56,418 bases of DNA from Bdellovibrionota bacterium FG-1 (GCA_051382295.1 JBBCAW010000054.1:1-56418); one strand, 5' to 3'. Shown: positions 23,179 through 34,762, counted from the stretch's first letter. Made by a program: numbers and translations. The notes: generated from the sequence alone by a model not told the origin.

Positions 23179-24006
23179 ATGGCGATTCGATCGATTTTGC
23201 CGTGTTCCGTGTTTACCGCGATTTTGACGCTGTTTTTAACATTTTTTACGACACAGAGTTCAGCACAACTCTCTGACCAGGATTACCGCAGAGCGTTAAA
23301 AATCGCAGAGAAAAAAGCGACTCGTATTAAAAATAGAAAAAAAATCAACGAAAGCGCTTTAACCACATCCTTAGTGGAGTTACTTTTTGGACACCCCTAT
23401 CAAAAAGGCGACAACTGGATGGTCGCGGCTTGGACCTTCGAAAACCCGATGGCTCGCATGACCGGAGACCCCTCCCAGCTCAGCCTTCAAACTCAACAAA
23501 ACGGCGTATTTATATATGAAGTCATTTCTGCTTCACTCCATCCTGCTCACGAAGTAAAAATCAGAATCACTCAGCTTGAGAGTTCAGAGATCAAAAAGCC
23601 TGATCCCCGAGTCATCGCTCTCTCTCTGCGAATGAATAACTCAATGCAGCAAAGTGAAAAAACATACCTGATGGAAGATCGCCAAGGACTTCGGCAATGG
23701 GTGCCGGTTTCACCCGAAGGACTCCATTCGTGGATCACGCCCCTGGAGCTTTTTCCACTCGATGTGCCCGAACTTGTCACAGCGGATAGTCGCACTGTTC
23801 AAACACTCCCCCGCCTTCCCCCTTCCATTCAAGAAACTGCCTTGCGTTTTGGCTTTGGCCCTGACCTCGCACGCAGTCACTGGTATGAGCAGGACGACTT
23901 TTTTGGGCGTCCTATTCAAGCACTTTGGCAACAAGGCGACCCTTGGCCCGCCTACTATCGCACTAATAATGGCATAGCTATTCTCATCAAAAAGGGAGCC
24001 CCCTGA
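23179..24006 (+). CDS. Hypothetical secreted protein
   Basis: Signal peptide; 275 aa; stop overlaps the start of the next gene. Confidence 0.7.
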   Translation: MAIRSILPCSVFTAILTLFLTFFTTQSSAQLSDQDYRRALKIAEKKATRIKNRKKINESALTTSLVELLFGHPYQKGDNWMVAAWTFENPMARMTGDPSQLSLQTQQNGVFIYEVISASLHPAHEVKIRITQLESSEIKKPDPRVIALSLRMNNSMQQSEKTYLMEDRQGLRQWVPVSPEGLHSWITPLELFPLDVPELVTADSRTVQTLPRLPPSIQETALRFGFGPDLARSHWYEQDDFFGRPIQALWQQGDPWPAYYRTNNGIAILIKKGAP

Positions 24007-25454
24007 TGCGCCCTCTCCACCCGGTCACCGCGATCCTCTTACTCCTCCCGCTGTTGATGACTTCATCTTGCGGCTCTGAACCCGCATCGGTACCCGCCGC
24101 AACTGAACCAGCGCCGACAGACCAATCCATGGACCCCTCACCTCCGTCATCGCCGACCGCGACAGTTGAGGTGGATGGCCAGCCTCCGTACCGGGGATTT
24201 CGGGGTCAAGATGTCCATGGTGACAACAACTTTGCCACACTGATCAATAGCTACTTGCAAGGGCGCCCTGACCCCGCCCCCTGGGCGGCGTTTTGGTGGC
24301 CCTACACCGCTAACGGAATTGCGTCAGGCTCCTATGGAGGAGGAAGTTCCGGAATGAATTACAGTCCCGCTGGAAAATACGATGCGGCGCGGGGTCACGC
24401 CACCCAAGCTCAAGAATGGGAAGTTAAAAACCACGGAGCGAGGGTTCCCAAGGTGCAAGGTTGGTGGGGTCACTGCAACGGCTGGTGTGCGGCATCCGCG
24501 CTTTATAAAGAGCCACGGGCGTCAGTCAAGGTCAACGGAATCGAGTTTAGCGTCGCCGACATCAAAGGGCTACTGGCCGAAGCGGGAATGTCGGCAAGCG
24601 CCGATTTTTTTGGCAATCGCTTGGACCCATGGACCCGAGATTATCAAAAAGCAATGGATGACACGGTGGCCGACCAATATTTTTTAGTGCTGACTAATTT
24701 TATGGGCAAGCTCAAACAAGCGGTTTTGATTGACCGATTCACCGGCGATCAAATTTGGAATCAACCGCTGGCGGGCTATCGCTTCAAATACCCAACTGCA
24801 GCGGATTATTTGGGTTGCACCAACAACGTCTGTAAGATCAATCTCGAATCAACGATTTGGTGGTACAATGACAGCGGCGTTCCGGCCAACGTACTCACAC
24901 CCGAGTTCAAATGGGAAGATATCTTGGACCCTCAAAGTGGCGCTGAACTGGTCCAACATCGAGAACTCAGAATGGAACTTTGGCTCGATGGCCCGGTTGA
25001 ATTTGGGACGGACGGAAAAATTTCAAAATCCGGCAACGTGATTGTGACACGCGATCCGGAAAATCCTGATTTCTTTGTGGGCGGCGCCTGGAAAGACGGC
25101 GCGCTGGATTACGCCGACGGACATCCTGATTATATGTGGGTGCCCTATTCGCTGGTTCCCCCCAGCCCTACTGAGGACTACGCCAATCCCCACGTCGATA
25201 TTGAATGGATCAAAAAACACCTATTAGTTCCCGGCGGCGCGGACGATCCGAGCGCCCGGCCTAGCCCTCTCGAAAGTAGCCCCACACCTCACCCCACGAG
25301 TTCGTCGTGGCCCACGCCAACACCTAGTTCAACCTATTCTCCGGTGCCACCGCTGCCAATGCCAACGCACTCCCCAATTCCTTGGCCCACTCCGACAGCG
25401 ACGTGGAATCCGCATCCAGCGCCTTGGCCAACACCCACCCGGTCAAGAGAATAA
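24006..25454 (+). CDS. Lipoprotein with transglutaminase-elicitor-like domain and Pro/Thr-rich tail
   Basis: Lipobox TSSC; PW..FWWP, SPAGKYD, WWGHCNGW, DIKGLLAE, IWNQP, HPDYMW; PTP/WPTP-rich C-terminus. Confidence 0.75.
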   Translation: MRPLHPVTAILLLLPLLMTSSCGSEPASVPAATEPAPTDQSMDPSPPSSPTATVEVDGQPPYRGFRGQDVHGDNNFATLINSYLQGRPDPAPWAAFWWPYTANGIASGSYGGGSSGMNYSPAGKYDAARGHATQAQEWEVKNHGARVPKVQGWWGHCNGWCAASALYKEPRASVKVNGIEFSVADIKGLLAEAGMSASADFFGNRLDPWTRDYQKAMDDTVADQYFLVLTNFMGKLKQAVLIDRFTGDQIWNQPLAGYRFKYPTAADYLGCTNNVCKINLESTIWWYNDSGVPANVLTPEFKWEDILDPQSGAELVQHRELRMELWLDGPVEFGTDGKISKSGNVIVTRDPENPDFFVGGAWKDGALDYADGHPDYMWVPYSLVPPSPTEDYANPHVDIEWIKKHLLVPGGADDPSARPSPLESSPTPHPTSSSWPTPTPSSTYSPVPPLPMPTHSPIPWPTPTATWNPHPAPWPTPTRSRE

Positions 25455-28118: not shown

Positions 28119-28658
28119 ATGGTTTTCATCGACGACAAAAACTTTACCAAATACCTCAACCGACACGAAATCGATGCCGCTGTTCAATCGATTGCCCAAA
28201 GAGTGAACGAAGATTACGCCGGCAAACAAGTCGTTTTGGTGGGAGTGCTTAAAGGCGCCTTTGTTTTTATGGCGGATTTAGCACGCCAGCTCAAAGTCGA
28301 CCCTGAAATCGAGTTTGTGCGGCTATCGAGTTACGGCAAAGCCCGCACCTCAACGGGAACGGTCACCATCCTCAAGGATATTTCGGCGGACATTCGAGGA
28401 AAACACGTCCTCATCGTTGAGGAAATCATCGACAGCGGACGGACTCTCAAGTTTTTGTATGAACGCATCAAGGCCAGTGGCCCAGCCTCGGTGGAGATTG
28501 CGACACTTCTGGACAAGGCCTCTAAGCGTGTGGTGGATGTGCCCGTTAAATACGTCGGCCGTGCGATCGACGATCAGTTTTTGGTCGGCTATGGACTCGA
28601 CTTAGAAGAATATTGTCGAAATCTGCCCGATATTTACTACCTCAAGTATCCGAACTAG
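28119..28658 (+). CDS. hpt: Hypoxanthine phosphoribosyltransferase
   Basis: VGVLKGAFVF.ADL, LSSYG, VLIVEEIIDSGRTL, LLDK, FLVGYGLD. Confidence 0.96.
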   Translation: MVFIDDKNFTKYLNRHEIDAAVQSIAQRVNEDYAGKQVVLVGVLKGAFVFMADLARQLKVDPEIEFVRLSSYGKARTSTGTVTILKDISADIRGKHVLIVEEIIDSGRTLKFLYERIKASGPASVEIATLLDKASKRVVDVPVKYVGRAIDDQFLVGYGLDLEEYCRNLPDIYYLKYPN

Positions 28659-29071
28659 AATCGCGAGCGATTCACGGTCCCATCCAGAATTCGCCGAAAA
28701 GTCGAGAAACCATGGATCATACGAGTCATTTCGGCTGAGTCGCGCGAAAGCTTTGACTTGGCACTCAGGGTGAATTCAGAACTCATCAACACTTCGGACT
28801 GACAAGTAGCCTCAGGACTGATCTGCATCTTTTCGACCACTTCGTCGATGCAAACTTCAAAATCGGTTTGATCTTCACCGGTATCGCGAGTTTCAACTTT
28901 GCGCTTGGAGTTCCAAAAATGCGCCTGACCGAATGAATCCATGCACACTAACCCAATAGTGCCTTTGCCATCGCCGGTACTCGGTCCGACCTGTGGAAGC
29001 GCAGGTTCTAAGGCCCAAACCGAACCACTCATCACACAGAGCAAAGCCAAGCCGATGAATCTCAAACGCAT
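28655..29071 (-). CDS. Hypothetical secreted protein with three Cys in the mature part
   Basis: RBS GAGGAG; signal peptide ending VWA. Confidence 0.65.
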   Translation of the reverse strand: MRLRFIGLALLCVMSGSVWALEPALPQVGPSTGDGKGTIGLVCMDSFGQAHFWNSKRKVETRDTGEDQTDFEVCIDEVVEKMQISPEATCQSEVLMSSEFTLSAKSKLSRDSAEMTRMIHGFSTFRRILDGTVNRSRF

Positions 29072-29140: not shown

Positions 29141-30151
29141 TCACCGCACAAGTACGGCTTGCCCCTCTTTATCAACACTGAAAGAAAACGTTGCCGATCG
29201 ATTGCCAGTGAAATCCATCGAAACGTCCGGAATCGAAAGAGAACCATGCGACGTAAATATCGTCCCCGTGACAACGGTGGGGTTCGTATTGCCATACTGA
29301 TTATAAAAATGATATTTTACCTTGTAAGTACCCGAAATCACTTGGTCAGACTGCCAGATCTCAGCGCCAGGTCCGCGACGGGTATCCAGAACAAATTCGC
29401 CTGGATGATCGGGATATTTGCGATTCTTGAACCCGAATATCTTGCCAGACGGATCCTCGATTGTAAGGTCGATATCATGATTCGTAGTCGGCCAACGGAT
29501 CATGACCGTCACAAAGGATTTTTTCCCCGCGCTTTTTGCCATTTCCGCGGCAAGGGCTTGCTGATTCTGAGCAAGAACAGCCTGCAATGACACCAGCTCC
29601 TTTCGAGCGACGTCACGATCCTGTTCTATTTGCCTCAACTGCCGATTGAGCAGCGCGATTTTTCGAGGCGCGCTCTTGAGCGATTGATCCGCAAGCGCTT
29701 CGCTTTTGAGCGCGTTCAACTCGGTTGTGAGCCTAGTCACCTCCTGAGTGTTCGATGCGATAGTGGCGGCCTGGGTCTTGATCCTTTCCTCGGCGTTAGC
29801 CATGGCTTTTTTCACTTCCGCCTGAGATGCCAGCGCCGTCGAGGCAATGGAAGCCACGGTGCCCCCAGCCTTATCGCCGAAGACTTTGATCGCTTCCTGT
29901 CGAACCTGATCAAACTTGTTCACCGTCGAATACAACAGAACAAACAACCCAAAGAGCAGGGTCATCATGTCGGCATAAGAAACAAGCCACCGTTCATCGA
30001 CGTGCAACAATTCATCTTCACTGTGGCCATCGTCACCCTCATCACCATCGGCGTGCTCTCCGACGTGCAGGGCGCCGCCGTTCTCCTCCATTTCCTTATC
30101 CATGCGCACCAGGCGGAGAACTCTAGCAGTGGCGCTCTCGGATTCTTGCAT
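29141..30151 (-). CDS. MotB-like stator subunit (MotB N-terminal TM + coiled coil + YfaP/DUF2135-like C-domain; no OmpA domain)
   Basis: WLVSYADMMTLLFGLFVLLYS with the conserved Asp; long coiled coil; C-terminal W....DIDL.I.DP.G...LD...GPG.E...GTYKV..HFY. Confidence 0.8.
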   Translation of the reverse strand: MQESESATARVLRLVRMDKEMEENGGALHVGEHADGDEGDDGHSEDELLHVDERWLVSYADMMTLLFGLFVLLYSTVNKFDQVRQEAIKVFGDKAGGTVASIASTALASQAEVKKAMANAEERIKTQAATIASNTQEVTRLTTELNALKSEALADQSLKSAPRKIALLNRQLRQIEQDRDVARKELVSLQAVLAQNQQALAAEMAKSAGKKSFVTVMIRWPTTNHDIDLTIEDPSGKIFGFKNRKYPDHPGEFVLDTRRGPGAEIWQSDQVISGTYKVKYHFYNQYGNTNPTVVTGTIFTSHGSLSIPDVSMDFTGNRSATFSFSVDKEGQAVLVR

Positions 30152-30160
30152 CTCGAACTC

Positions 30161-31057
30161 CTAAGCTGCGGGCTTTTGCTTGGTCTTGCGCTCGCGCTCA
30201 CGCTCACGCTCGTGTTCTTTTTCACGTTCGCGGCTTAAGGCCAGCGAAATCGTCCGCTTTAGATCGACGCGGCGCTTAATTGGCAGATAGCTATTCAATT
30301 TTTCCGCCACGATCGCCTCGGGCGTCTTTTGCTTAATGAGCATCAGCCCCGCGATGATCAATCCTCGGGTAAATTGATCCTCCTCTGCCGCCTTTACCGC
30401 ATAGTCCGCCAAGGGCAAAAAGATCAGATTGGCCATGGCAATCCCCCAAAATGTCGCCACTAGCGCGACCGCCATGGCCGGGCCGATCGTATCCTGCCCG
30501 CCGCTGCCGAGATTGGTCATCATCGTAATCATCCCGGTAGAGGCGCCCAATAGGCCAAAAGCAGGAGGAAACTTTGCGATCGCCGTCAGAATTTTGGCGT
30601 CATCCATATAAGACTTCTTAAAGAACTTGCTCCGTCGCACGAGGACTTCATGCAAATCCTTCTCGTTCAACTTGCTTTCGGCGATCAACAGATACCCTTC
30701 GGTCAAAAAGGGATGAAGCGCCCCACGTTGCGCCACACCAATCGGAGTTTCACGCACCAGCCGGGCAGTGACCACCATTTCGTTGACGAGTACACGATGA
30801 TCGGTCTTGCGCTTGAAGATCATGCCAAAAATCAGCAGATTGGCCAGATTGAGAAGGCGCCTGGCCGGATAGGCGATCAGGGCCGTGGCGAGCGTGCCGC
30901 CAACCACCAGAATGAGCGCATGAGGGTCAAGAAACAGATCTGGCTTGGGGGCCGGATGGATCACCCCCTGATAGATCACGCTGAATGCAATGATGAATCC
31001 TACGATGCTAGTGATATTCACGGGTATGAGCTGGCCTCCCATCAACCCTATCGTCAT
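30161..31057 (-). CDS. MotA-family proton channel subunit
   Basis: LILVVGGT, HPFL..G, FPPAFGLLGASTGMI, GPAMAVALVATFWG...ANL.FLPLA. Confidence 0.9.
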   Translation of the reverse strand: MTIGLMGGQLIPVNITSIVGFIIAFSVIYQGVIHPAPKPDLFLDPHALILVVGGTLATALIAYPARRLLNLANLLIFGMIFKRKTDHRVLVNEMVVTARLVRETPIGVAQRGALHPFLTEGYLLIAESKLNEKDLHEVLVRRSKFFKKSYMDDAKILTAIAKFPPAFGLLGASTGMITMMTNLGSGGQDTIGPAMAVALVATFWGIAMANLIFLPLADYAVKAAEEDQFTRGLIIAGLMLIKQKTPEAIVAEKLNSYLPIKRRVDLKRTISLALSREREKEHERERERERKTKQKPAA

Positions 31058-31086
31058 TTTCGACTCAACCCTTAAAAAATTTGGCC

Positions 31087-32454
31087 TTAAAAAAGGTAAA
31101 CCACATTGACTGTGGTTTGAACCAAGGAAGCAGTGGGAGAGGCGGCAGAGGCACCGCCAAAAATATATTTAGAATATCCCAAAAGAATATCGGCTTTCGA
31201 ACCCAGGAAAGGAAACTCGATTCCGACTTCGGGCTCAAGTGATTGCGAAGTCGAATTGGGGAAAAGACCCGTAGAAACTGCACCTAACAAAAACGCGGTT
31301 CTCGCCGAAACATTGAGTTGAGCGAACAACCCGAAACCCGGCTGGTTGAGCTGAAGACTGACAGCCCCCGAGTCGTAAAACCCACCCATTGAAACAAAAT
31401 AAACCCGGGGCGACAGCGTCAGAAAAGACCCCAGATCCAGGTTGCCAGACAGATAAAACTGCATCCCGTAAAGGGTCATCGCTTGGCCGGTCATCGCCAC
31501 CGGAAAACTCAGTTTAATCCGTGCTCCAAGATCCAGAAGCTTGAAAAACCGACGAGTGCGCACGCCCAGATCAAGATCAGGTTGAACGGCAGCGCCTTGT
31601 GTAAACGGCGTCGAAACCGATGCTTGCATGACCCCCAACCCCCCCCGAAACACCACGACGGGATTCAGGGGTGGAGGGGGCGGAACCGGCGCCTTAACCA
31701 CCGTTTGCGGTCCGATGCCACGAAAGGTTTTTTGCCGAATCTGCAAAAGGTAGGAAGAAACCGAGCCCCCGTATGCGAAATTCAGACGCCCCATGTTTCC
31801 ACCGGTGGAGAGTTGCGTCGAGGTCAAGGAATACTGCTTCCAACGCTCCCCTTTGCCGAGCACTTCAAAGAGGCTGGTATCCGCCCATTCCACATCCTCC
31901 GGCACCGTCACGGTGACCAGAAGGTCTTCCGTTTTCTTGGAACACGAAAGACCTACGGGAATGGGTCGAACGCTCAAAGCTTTTGGCTTCGCCTCGGCCC
32001 GCTGAGGAAGTAATTGCAAAGAATAAGGATCACATCCGTGGCTGATGATTTCTGACGAACTCAGCGTGATCCGAAGGTCAAAAACAAGATTGGGCCCCCC
32101 TTGTTGCTCAATAATCACGCGGTCTTGTAGTGCCGAGAGCAGGAGCTGAATGCCACTTCCACCGCGTTCCCACCGGACGGCACCGCCTTGCACGCCCACA
32201 ACACGAACAGGGGAAGGAGGGGTAAGAATGACCTGAGAATACAAGACACTGACACTAGGAGGAGCGGTGATCCATTTCCACTGATGACGCGCGCTCCAAC
32301 CCAGCAAAACTCCAGGACTTTGGCCTCCGACCGTGTGCAACTCGACCCGAACCGTCGCATTCGCGCGATGGGGCATAAAAAGGGCGAGCCCAGAGTTCAT
32401 GACCGCAGCCATGCAAAGAAGCTGAATCAGACCCTGCCAGAACGATGCGTTCAT
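31087..32454 (-). CDS. Hypothetical outer-membrane protein (N-terminal beta domains, Pro linker, C-terminal beta-barrel)
   Basis: Signal peptide (ANA); PVPPPPP linker; amphipathic strands; ends VVYLF. Confidence 0.65.
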   Translation of the reverse strand: MNASFWQGLIQLLCMAAVMNSGLALFMPHRANATVRVELHTVGGQSPGVLLGWSARHQWKWITAPPSVSVLYSQVILTPPSPVRVVGVQGGAVRWERGGSGIQLLLSALQDRVIIEQQGGPNLVFDLRITLSSSEIISHGCDPYSLQLLPQRAEAKPKALSVRPIPVGLSCSKKTEDLLVTVTVPEDVEWADTSLFEVLGKGERWKQYSLTSTQLSTGGNMGRLNFAYGGSVSSYLLQIRQKTFRGIGPQTVVKAPVPPPPPLNPVVVFRGGLGVMQASVSTPFTQGAAVQPDLDLGVRTRRFFKLLDLGARIKLSFPVAMTGQAMTLYGMQFYLSGNLDLGSFLTLSPRVYFVSMGGFYDSGAVSLQLNQPGFGLFAQLNVSARTAFLLGAVSTGLFPNSTSQSLEPEVGIEFPFLGSKADILLGYSKYIFGGASAASPTASLVQTTVNVVYLF

Positions 32455-32551: not shown

Positions 32552-34762
32552 ATGATCAAGTACAAGGGGTATCGGGTTCTCATTCCAACTTGCGTTCTTT
32601 TGCTGTTTTCGGCGTGTAAAAGTGGTTACGTCGATATGAACGAAGATCTCTACTCGGCCATGGCCGCAGTCACTGCCCTAAAAACAGCGCCCCCCTCACC
32701 GACCCCCTCTCCCGTAACCCCCTCGGTTTTTTCCGTGACCCCGTCCACCGCGACCATCACCGTAGGACAACCACTCACGTTGCAGGTTTCCAATGGTCAA
32801 GCTCCGTTCACTTTCTCGATTCTCTCGAAAGATGCCAACGGAAATCCGGTGGGCACTGTCAGCGTCGATTCAGAATCCGGCACCTACACTCCCGGGCCAA
32901 ACGCTGGCTCGGCAATCATCCAAGTCGTCGATGGGGTCGGCCACACGGCCATCGCCACGGTCATTATCAATGGCGCCTTACAGGTCGCCAATCCCATGCA
33001 ATACATTGAAGAGGGGCAAACGACCCCGATCGCGGTCGTCGTCGGAGGAGGCGTACCGCCTTTAACTTACTCAATCGACACAGACCAATGCGGCGCCCTG
33101 AACGCCAATAGTGGCGTATTTACTGCTGGAAACTTACCTAAGAACTGTAATGTCACGGTGACCGACTCCGCCTCGCCCCCTCATGTGGTGACTGAAACCG
33201 TGGTGATCTATGCCCCCCTGGCGGTCGTACCCAACGCAGGCACCCCTTCGCTGGACTCCGACCCCACGGTCGGTCAATCTTCTTTCAAGCTCCAGGTTTC
33301 CGGAGGTTCCCCCATCGGCACTCCGGCGTTCACGTACTGTCCGGGAGCCTTGTCCTCCTGTCCCCCTGCGGCGGCGGCACTTCCAATAAAAAGCTCGACA
33401 GACCAACTGTACTCCTTTGTTCCCATGAACGCCGCCGGAGACTACACGGTTTGTGCTACCGATTCGCAAAGCAATACGGCATGCACCCCGATTGCAGTCC
33501 ATAGTTCCTCCGTGGCCTTGGCCTTTGGAGTGCCCATTTTTCCGCAAGACGCGCCGCAAATCTGTAAAAATATGCCAGTCCCGAAGAACAACCCAGTGCA
33601 GATCACAACGAAGAACTCTGTGAGTGTTTTAGTGACGGATGGCTATGCCTTGCCCCAAACCTACAGCCTGACGCCTCTCAAAAAGGACGGTACCGCCCTG
33701 GCCGGGGTGACGCTCAATCCGAACGTCATTTCCTCAAATCAGTCCATGCCCATTCAAGTGTCTGGACAGCCCGTGATCGCCGGCTTTGCCTTCGACATCC
33801 ATGTCCAAAATGCCACCAATCCCAATCAGGTGCAAAACTTAGGTATCCTCATAGTCGCCCCTCCCGTGGCGTCTCCGACAACCTACCCATCGAACGCCCA
33901 GAATGGCGACAGCCAGCTTTTCGCATTCTCTGACGGAGTCGGCCCGTACTGTGCACCGTCGAAATCCGGAACATACGCCGCATCGGTCGGCGCCAACGGG
34001 CTTGCTTATACCTTCGGCAACAATGACCTGACTGCACCGGTGACCTTCTACGATTCGCTCGGCAACTCTTTCAAGTCGACCCAAGCGGGAGCGAACACTT
34101 TCACGGGCCTCATGAATATCGACTCGATCACCTCCACGTCATTAACGGCCCACTACGAGATGCTCAATGGAGATCAAGTTCAGAGCAACTATGCCATGTC
34201 CATTCAGATCCTCGGCAAGCCAGCGGCACCCCCAGCCTCCGCAAGCCTTTCGAGCTATTCATACTCCCTGCCGCTCTGCAATCGTTCCTGCTCGGGCACC
34301 GACTGCGCCTGCACTTTCACACCGCTTGCACCCGGAGTCAGCTATCAAGTGACTCTCACTTATAAAAATGTACCTACTAACCAGACAGCCAGCACAACCG
34401 CACTCACCATTAACGTGCCGGCACCAGGAATTTCAGTGTCGTCACCGTTAGCCAACCAAGCAAAACTGCAGTGGCCTCTGATGACGGTCGGCGGCGACGT
34501 CCCAATCAATGGTTACACCCTTTACTACGCCAAAGGTGCTCAGAACAGCACCAGTACTATGAGTGCCCTTATAAATATTGCCGCCGCGAATGTCACCTAC
34601 GACGCCAACCAAAAGAAGTACACCTATACCTTTACAGACGTACAACTTCTCACTGCGAACAACGCTTTCACTTTTACGGTGGTGCCGATCATCAACGGTG
34701 TCTTGATCCCGCCGATCCCCGCACAAAATGCGATTTCGTTTCCGTCCGTCCTCATCCAATGA
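32552..34762 (+). CDS. Large Ig-like/Fn3-like repeat lipoprotein
   Basis: Lipobox FSAC; repeated GGVPPLTYS / NGQAPFTFS / G.YT.G / VTD modules; T/S/P/V-rich. Confidence 0.75.
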   Translation: MIKYKGYRVLIPTCVLLLFSACKSGYVDMNEDLYSAMAAVTALKTAPPSPTPSPVTPSVFSVTPSTATITVGQPLTLQVSNGQAPFTFSILSKDANGNPVGTVSVDSESGTYTPGPNAGSAIIQVVDGVGHTAIATVIINGALQVANPMQYIEEGQTTPIAVVVGGGVPPLTYSIDTDQCGALNANSGVFTAGNLPKNCNVTVTDSASPPHVVTETVVIYAPLAVVPNAGTPSLDSDPTVGQSSFKLQVSGGSPIGTPAFTYCPGALSSCPPAAAALPIKSSTDQLYSFVPMNAAGDYTVCATDSQSNTACTPIAVHSSSVALAFGVPIFPQDAPQICKNMPVPKNNPVQITTKNSVSVLVTDGYALPQTYSLTPLKKDGTALAGVTLNPNVISSNQSMPIQVSGQPVIAGFAFDIHVQNATNPNQVQNLGILIVAPPVASPTTYPSNAQNGDSQLFAFSDGVGPYCAPSKSGTYAASVGANGLAYTFGNNDLTAPVTFYDSLGNSFKSTQAGANTFTGLMNIDSITSTSLTAHYEMLNGDQVQSNYAMSIQILGKPAAPPASASLSSYSYSLPLCNRSCSGTDCACTFTPLAPGVSYQVTLTYKNVPTNQTASTTALTINVPAPGISVSSPLANQAKLQWPLMTVGGDVPINGYTLYYAKGAQNSTSTMSALINIAAANVTYDANQKKYTYTFTDVQLLTANNAFTFTVVPIINGVLIPPIPAQNAISFPSVLIQ

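Follow-up and report, generated by a model that had tools for sequence, protein, structure and literature searches.

A MotAB-type motor with a TerD/YfaP-like periplasmic arm and a linked outer-membrane barrel: a candidate non-flagellar envelope machine of Bdellovibrionota

A 56,418-nucleotide stretch of DNA from Bdellovibrionota bacterium FG-1 (GCA_051382295.1 JBBCAW010000054.1:1-56418), referred to here as the window, carries three closely spaced genes on its minus strand, encoding a predicted outer-membrane barrel protein (31087-32454), a MotA-like A subunit (30161-31057) and a MotB-like B subunit (29141-30151), with gaps of 29 and 9 bp. The B subunit joins a stator-type channel segment to a long periplasmic arm with a TerD/YfaP-like tip. 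Across the phylum, genes for this arm travel with the barrel gene and with genes for large lipoproteins, and at some loci the same arm and barrel are combined with a different motor core. The three genes very probably encode a non-flagellar arm-barrel machine of some kind. We assign a probability of about 0.5 to the reading that a proton-driven, non-flagellar envelope motor acts through the barrel to display or move surface lipoproteins.

Results

The B subunit (336 amino acids (aa)) was matched by PF13677 (MotB_plug) over residues 50-88 (E 1e-11), a match that contains the motif SYADMMTLL with the proton-binding Asp61, and a Pfam scan of the protein gave no OmpA match and no other significant match. 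An AlphaFold2 (AF2) model built from 94 sequences (predicted local distance difference test score, pLDDT, 84) placed a transmembrane (TM) helix at residues 51-77, a plug-like helix at 80-92, helices at 101-208 and an all-beta region at 214-335. Combined with the Pfam and homology data, this delimits a TM segment of residues 55-77 (29921-29989) with Asp61 in the context W-L-V-S-Y-A-D, a helical stalk of residues 101-208 (29528-29851) and a C-terminal beta-sandwich of residues 212-336 (29144-29518). The stalk, described in the initial annotation as a coiled coil of about 110 aa, likely forms a coiled coil in the B dimer. Its length ranges from 77 to 356 aa among homologs, and by calculation an extended helix of 108 residues would span about 16 nm, although in the monomer model the helix may fold back. 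Homologs of B at E<=0.001 numbered 249 among 4414 candidates; among the matches listed, MotB_plug was present in 120/120, the channel Asp in 119/120 (by pattern) and OmpA (PF00691) in 0/120. With the all-beta model, this upholds the claim that the C-terminal domain is not OmpA-like.

This C-terminal domain, the arm tip, is conserved better than any other part of B, with W220, D228, G260-P261-G262 and W266 invariant; the conserved residues D226, D228, D256 and E264 are candidate calcium ligands. Its predicted fold is closest to TerD (Foldseek E 1.7e-4; Z 10.8, root-mean-square deviation (rmsd) 3.3 over 123 residues), and a PDB sequence search with it returned nothing significant. It had been proposed to resemble YfaP/DUF2135. 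The PF09906 (DUF2135) cut-off was not reached in the Pfam scan, and the family was not among the 25 of 191 families shown for 94 members. However, the family profile of the domain retrieved two true PF09906 proteins (E 2e-14 and 6e-9), one of them the YfaP of an alpha-2-macroglobulin operon, and hhalign to a true PF09906 protein gave a probability of 97%; the domain is thus YfaP-like by remote homology, though below Pfam detection. An Atlas feature match (0.90) paired it with a cluster containing 21% DUF2135. The arm tip has the motif W..D.DL..DP.G..D..G.G.E and the fold in common with YfaP/DUF2135 and TerD, but unlike YfaP proper, which sits in alpha-2-macroglobulin operons (L164), it is fused to a motor subunit.

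The barrel protein (455 aa) has a signal-like N-terminus, a predicted all-beta periplasmic region (31738-32355), a Pro-rich linker and a predicted 10-stranded C-terminal barrel (31090-31656) whose last residue is Phe. Its model (pLDDT 89, 41 sequences) has OmpT (Z 20.6, rmsd 2.4 over 183 residues), OpcA (Z 18.6) and a Dot/Icm porin (Z 18.2) as its closest fold neighbours. In the 41-sequence alignment all the invariant residues (C141, C171, G200 and K201, with the motif LFE..GKGERW) lie in the N-terminal part, and none in the barrel is invariant or near-invariant. The family thus differs from the omptin proteases, whose 10-stranded barrel is alike but whose catalytic Asp and His residues we take to be invariant. 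This confinement makes protease activity less likely and suggests that the N-terminal part makes a conserved contact in the periplasm. Word-indexed homolog searches with the barrel, which is too divergent for them, recovered only itself and one other sequence, and a PDB sequence search gave nothing significant; a leave-one-out barrel profile, in contrast, had the window gene as its sole match in the host genome (E 2e-45). Outside the phylum its range, from the plasmid search alone, comprised two weak records. A complex prediction of barrel and arm tip scored 0.01, which counts neither for nor against contact.

The distribution of both parts was followed through 401 genomes of the phylum, with E<1e-12 defining a strong barrel match. 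The arm tip was matched in 30 genomes, of which three held non-motors (two DUF2135 proteins and one weak match), leaving 27 genomes with 33 loci. Strong barrel matches occurred in 24/401 genomes, and all 24 were among these 27; a further 16 barrel matches, weaker and partial, were disregarded, 2 of them in genomes with the motor and 14 in genomes without it. At 27/33 loci the barrel gene lay within 10 kb of the motor, in varying order and orientation, so the linkage noticed in the window is conserved. While 18 of these 27 loci had contributed to the barrel profile, 9 of the 15 remaining loci were found blind, and the barrel had clustered with motor-adjacent genes at 25 of the 39 loci first examined. 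Within the host's own family the arm was found in 6/75 genomes and the barrel in 5/75, including a held-out genome (G402) with arm and barrel adjacent, and in G145, G285, G327 and G396 arm and barrel vary together in copy number. Metagenome pattern matches numbered 28, of which 20 encode the arm; four duplicated genome loci, and the barrel was present at 10 of the 16 others, with four of the six barrel-less loci on contigs shorter than 5 kb. As kin are not independent, no P value is attached to the co-occurrence. A profile search of genome contigs recovered three family loci in 80, swamped by ordinary MotB. Three genomes carry a second copy (L160-L162). Its stalk is short, a further gene (223 aa) separates B from the barrel, and upstream lie three conserved genes for proteins of 555-598 aa with no Pfam matches.

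At 5/33 loci the same stalk, arm tip and barrel occur with an ExbB/TolQ-type A subunit and a B subunit with a different membrane segment (SAIDLFAS-type), three of them with an FHA gene. The arm tips of these ExbB-type loci are 43% identical to that of the window (E 5e-41), and the ExbB/TolQ-type A gave no BLAST similarity to the window MotA. A tree of the C-terminal domain (49 rows, 127 columns, five truncated or degenerate rows having been dropped) implies at least two changes of motor type, although it does not give their direction and long branches meet in it. The motor core was swapped while the output, arm and barrel, was kept. In whichever direction this happened, the arm and the barrel are what is conserved as a unit, and the core in the membrane can be exchanged. 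The swap supports a non-flagellar machine that acts with the barrel.

Relatives of the ExbB-type version were also seen on plasmids. In a Rhizobium plasmid (NZ_CP125637.1; L216:995-7468), an ExbB-type A and a B with a YfaP-like tip come after kinase-like, PP2C-like and FHA open reading frames (ORFs; domain names assigned by eye). Downstream are a secreted-looking protein of low complexity (1610 aa) and an ORF of vWA/FHA-like type, and no barrel was recognised by eye. In an Anabaena plasmid (NC_019773.1; L217:6923-8323), an ExbB-type relative directly follows a type III-B CRISPR module, and a gene of the viperin family lies further along.

The neighbourhoods supply a fourth component that was missing from the initial annotation. 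Lipoproteins of at least 400 aa accounted for 59/233 flanking genes in 67 loci, compared with 2/215 distal genes and 67/4214 genes of the host genome, the lipoprotein call being a simple lipobox pattern and the 67-locus counts including duplicates and kin. The flanking genes mostly encode large, often Cys-rich lipoproteins of unrelated families, among them S8 proteases, Cys-repeat and NHL-repeat proteins, and barrels on contigs separate from the motor still sit with large lipoprotein genes (L167, L175). In the window the candidate client is a divergent 736-aa lipoprotein (32552-34762, plus strand) with lipobox Cys22 and weak fn3/Ig matches. Because the arm genes travel with the barrel and with large lipoprotein genes, they likely work on surface proteins rather than in flagellar rotation.

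The A subunit (298 aa) was matched by PF01618, with MotA, PomA and MotP as top NCBIfam matches, and aligned over residues 14-263, nearly its full length, with solved MotA and PomA chains (E 1e-22 to solved MotAs); it is of the four-TM type with an expanded cytoplasmic domain. At the positions of PomA T158, T185 and T186 it has Ala, Ala and Thr, a proton-type pattern; proton-driven stators have Ala at the first two, according to PMC10374538. The segment VRETPIGVAQ, picked out in the initial annotation for its missing FliG-contacting Glu, indeed aligns with ARREGLLSLE-type segments of solved MotAs, and of the charged FliG-contact residues (PomA R88/E96 type) one Arg is kept and the Glu is absent. 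By pattern, the RxEG..LE motif was found in 0/44 family MotAs compared with 51/70 other MotAs, and the rotor-contact stretch is the least conserved region of the family MotAs (0.26, versus 0.72 for TM3-4). However, the loss of this motif is not diagnostic and was rejected as evidence when taken alone, because the nearest sister MotAs of Bdellovibrionota also lack it and yet are paired with an OmpA-bearing MotB. The (ER)n tail, also remarked on at the outset, is present but private (1/44 family MotAs) and was likewise rejected.

The window MotA is 33% identical to a Bdellovibrio MotA whose partner is an OmpA-bearing MotB. Sister pairs with OmpA-type MotB lie near proteins of 560-630 aa (G000:C55:7785-10859 (L223), L022:12060-13826, L023:12111-13847, L028:5194-7080 and L037:740-2638), and at four of these five tested loci the long protein has FliG middle and C domains outside flagellar operons, which suggests a second rotor system. 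No FliG-like ORF was found among 809 ORFs of 82 loci with a profile that does find the host-genome FliG. With neither a FliG-like gene at its loci nor an OmpA anchor, the arm-barrel branch seems to have lost a private rotor as well as the wall anchor. Within the same clade, a nested MotA (L027:7120-8879) has a MotB partner with a PDZ periplasmic domain, neither OmpA nor YfaP, and so presents a third kind of B arm.

Pfam detected no flagellar gene among the 51 window ORFs scanned. The description of the pair as an orphan is correct for the window but not for the genome (G000), since the host is flagellated, with fliG, flhA/B, fliM/P and fliA on a separate contig (C1), and has five further MotB_plug genes in MotAB pairs; the window pair is thus extra and not the sole stator. 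All 26 other motor genomes likewise encode FliG and at least one other MotB_plug gene. In one host MotB paralog (G000:C33:29894-30613), which lies next to a canonical-looking MotA, Gly replaces the channel Asp (SYAGFMTLL). Elsewhere in the window, a 138-aa secreted-looking ORF (28655-29071) without Pfam match or homolog in other loci lies 69 bp downstream of the B gene, and a gene pair at 23179-25454 includes one lipoprotein-like product with a transglutaminase-elicitor domain and a Pro/Thr-rich tail.

Discussion

It is established for 5:2 motors that ion flow past the Asp of B turns the A5 ring against B2; a flagellar stator has its B subunit fixed to peptidoglycan, and its A subunit drives FliG. 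By extension from such motors, the window proteins would assemble as A5B2 and couple proton flow to relative rotation. Force would leave by way of the B arm in the periplasm, as it does in ExbBD, TolQR and GldLM, and not through MotA to FliG. On the most parsimonious reading, the arm tip would bind the periplasmic domain of the barrel protein, and the motor would pull or turn the barrel so as to hold, place or move large surface lipoproteins, the narrow barrel serving as their handle and not as their pore. The proposal in the initial annotation of a non-flagellar envelope motor acting on the barrel gains from the core swap under a constant arm and barrel; physical contact with the barrel is presumed. 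A wider scenario is put forward tentatively, namely a new three-gene, proton-powered surface-display or secretion machine of Bdellovibrionota, in which the arm of an ExbB-type motor would have received a stator-type motor. The machine would drive large lipoproteins rich in disulfides, such as proteases and adhesins, to the surface or along it through a small dedicated barrel, perhaps in attacking prey or in moving over surfaces. A 2026 review (PMC13104615) names as an open challenge which motor, adhesins and force path serve Bdellovibrio in surface movement; presence in 27/401 genomes is too patchy for the system to be a general answer. Made up of three genes besides its clients, it would rank with the simplest envelope-spanning motors for reconstitution.

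Several observations weigh against display or movement of lipoproteins through the barrel, beginning with the pattern-based lipoprotein calls noted above and the fact that the loci are related and partly duplicated. Three of the 27 arm genomes have no strong barrel match: G088 and G273, which are 97-99% complete, and G193 (89% complete), whose locus (L144:6501-8668) is a degenerate copy with a B subunit devoid of the Asp motif and of a MotB_plug match. The 736-aa lipoprotein of the window has no homolog at other loci or elsewhere in the host genome, and client-type domains are common without the motor, two client profiles matching 53 and 52 of the 401 genomes, 42 of the latter 52 without the arm. 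In one genus the fliL-fliA operon has the pair at its end, separated from fliA by 261 bp in G348 and by a fibre gene in G285 and G327; in a metagenome contig (L190) the pair faces fliL-fliM. The genes inserted between fliA and motor in this genus (L153, L154, L156 and L218-L220) are Peptidase-S74 tail-fibre-like and encode 1600-2100 aa.

The main rival to the display reading is dedicated proton-driven export, in the spirit of Slam or type IX secretion, in which the barrel, alone or as an oligomer, would let the lipoproteins pass across the outer membrane. Unrelated lipoprotein families alternate beside a constant motor-barrel pair as cargo might, and the matched arm and barrel copy numbers in the four genomes named above also fit. 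However, 10-stranded barrels of the OmpT/OpcA type, the predicted fold here, are narrow for disulfide-rich proteins of 400-1250 aa, and related lipoprotein domains occur in genomes without the system; we therefore regard export as unlikely. It is less probable still that the pair is an accessory flagellar stator, anchored to an outer-membrane or sheath barrel instead of peptidoglycan. The ExbB/TolQ-type version keeps arm and barrel without a stator-type A, no family MotA has the rotor-contact motif, and at most loci a flagellar neighbour is absent. A flagellar role nevertheless retains some probability, as the locus lies beside the fliL-fliA operon in two contexts, one genus and one metagenome contig; moreover, MotA is stator-type over its full length, FliG is encoded in 27/27 hosts, and in B. 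bacteriovorus three motAB pairs are reported to serve one flagellum.

Slightly more doubtful is a sensor or triggered ion channel, responding to surface contact, envelope stress or, in a Zorya-like manner, phage, in which the arm would read the state of the barrel and open the channel without mechanical work. The plug is kept, TerD-fold domains bind calcium (PDB entry), and ExbB-type relatives occur with FHA proteins, to which the Rhizobium plasmid adds Ser/Thr kinase and PP2C-like phosphatase ORFs; yet FHA is absent from MotA-type loci, conserved effector genes were not found nearby, and PADLOC gave no match for MotA and a weak, TM-level match to ZorB (E 0.004). Least probable is a role like that of Ton or Tol, in which the motor would power uptake through the barrel or help to maintain the outer membrane, and the lipoprotein genes would be bystanders that belong to a variable island. 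Energised transporters have a periplasmic domain in front of the barrel, an arrangement that the window protein recalls, and the nearby S8 proteases could feed uptake, but the barrel is far smaller than 22-stranded TonB-dependent transporters and lipoprotein enrichment drops to background a few genes away.

Comparison with known systems

In ExbBD-TonB and TolQR-TolA, force exits on the periplasmic side. Like them, the sister version of the window system uses an ExbB/TolQ-type A subunit; unlike them, no TonB- or TolA-like third subunit recurs at the loci, and the C-terminal domain of B is TerD/YfaP-like and not ExbD-like. ZorAB of Zorya also employs a MotAB-like core away from the flagellum, but in that system an OmpA-like domain is retained in ZorB and ZorA carries a long tail, whereas the window MotA has no ZorA match and the neighbourhoods lack the effectors ZorC/D/E. 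The Myxococcus AglRQS-Glt-CglB gliding machine has a similar layout of inner-membrane ion motor, trans-envelope link and outer-membrane platform retaining a surface adhesin. Here, in contrast, the motor is MotA-type, B is long enough to be the link, and one 10-stranded barrel replaces the Glt set; no recurring glt cluster was seen in the arm-locus neighbourhoods, although no Glt-specific profiles were run. The GldLM/PorLM motor of type IX secretion and gliding resembles the window system in its 5:2 motor and long periplasmic arm acting on outer-membrane parts and surface adhesins, but is not homologous to MotAB, and neither an SprA-size translocon nor GldKN ring genes were seen with the window system.

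The motor core is of a known kind; in the literature searched, no account of the output module or of the core swap was found, and Table S4 of PMC11323537, with the motAB pairs of 16 genomes, might count one such motor. The closest relatives of the core are the flagellar stators MotA5B2 and PomA5B2 of the FIT clade, with which the window pair shares a full-length MotA-type A subunit and a MotB TM segment with Asp and plug, and from which it differs in lacking the OmpA-like peptidoglycan domain and the rotor-contact motif and in having barrel and lipoprotein partners. A 2025 survey (PMC12505986) treats the OmpA-like peptidoglycan domain as a conserved trait of that clade, a rule that at least 120 proteins break. 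The exchange of stator-type and ExbB-type cores under one output arm is a natural experiment on how 5:2 motors are converted between driving a rotor and doing work in the periplasm.

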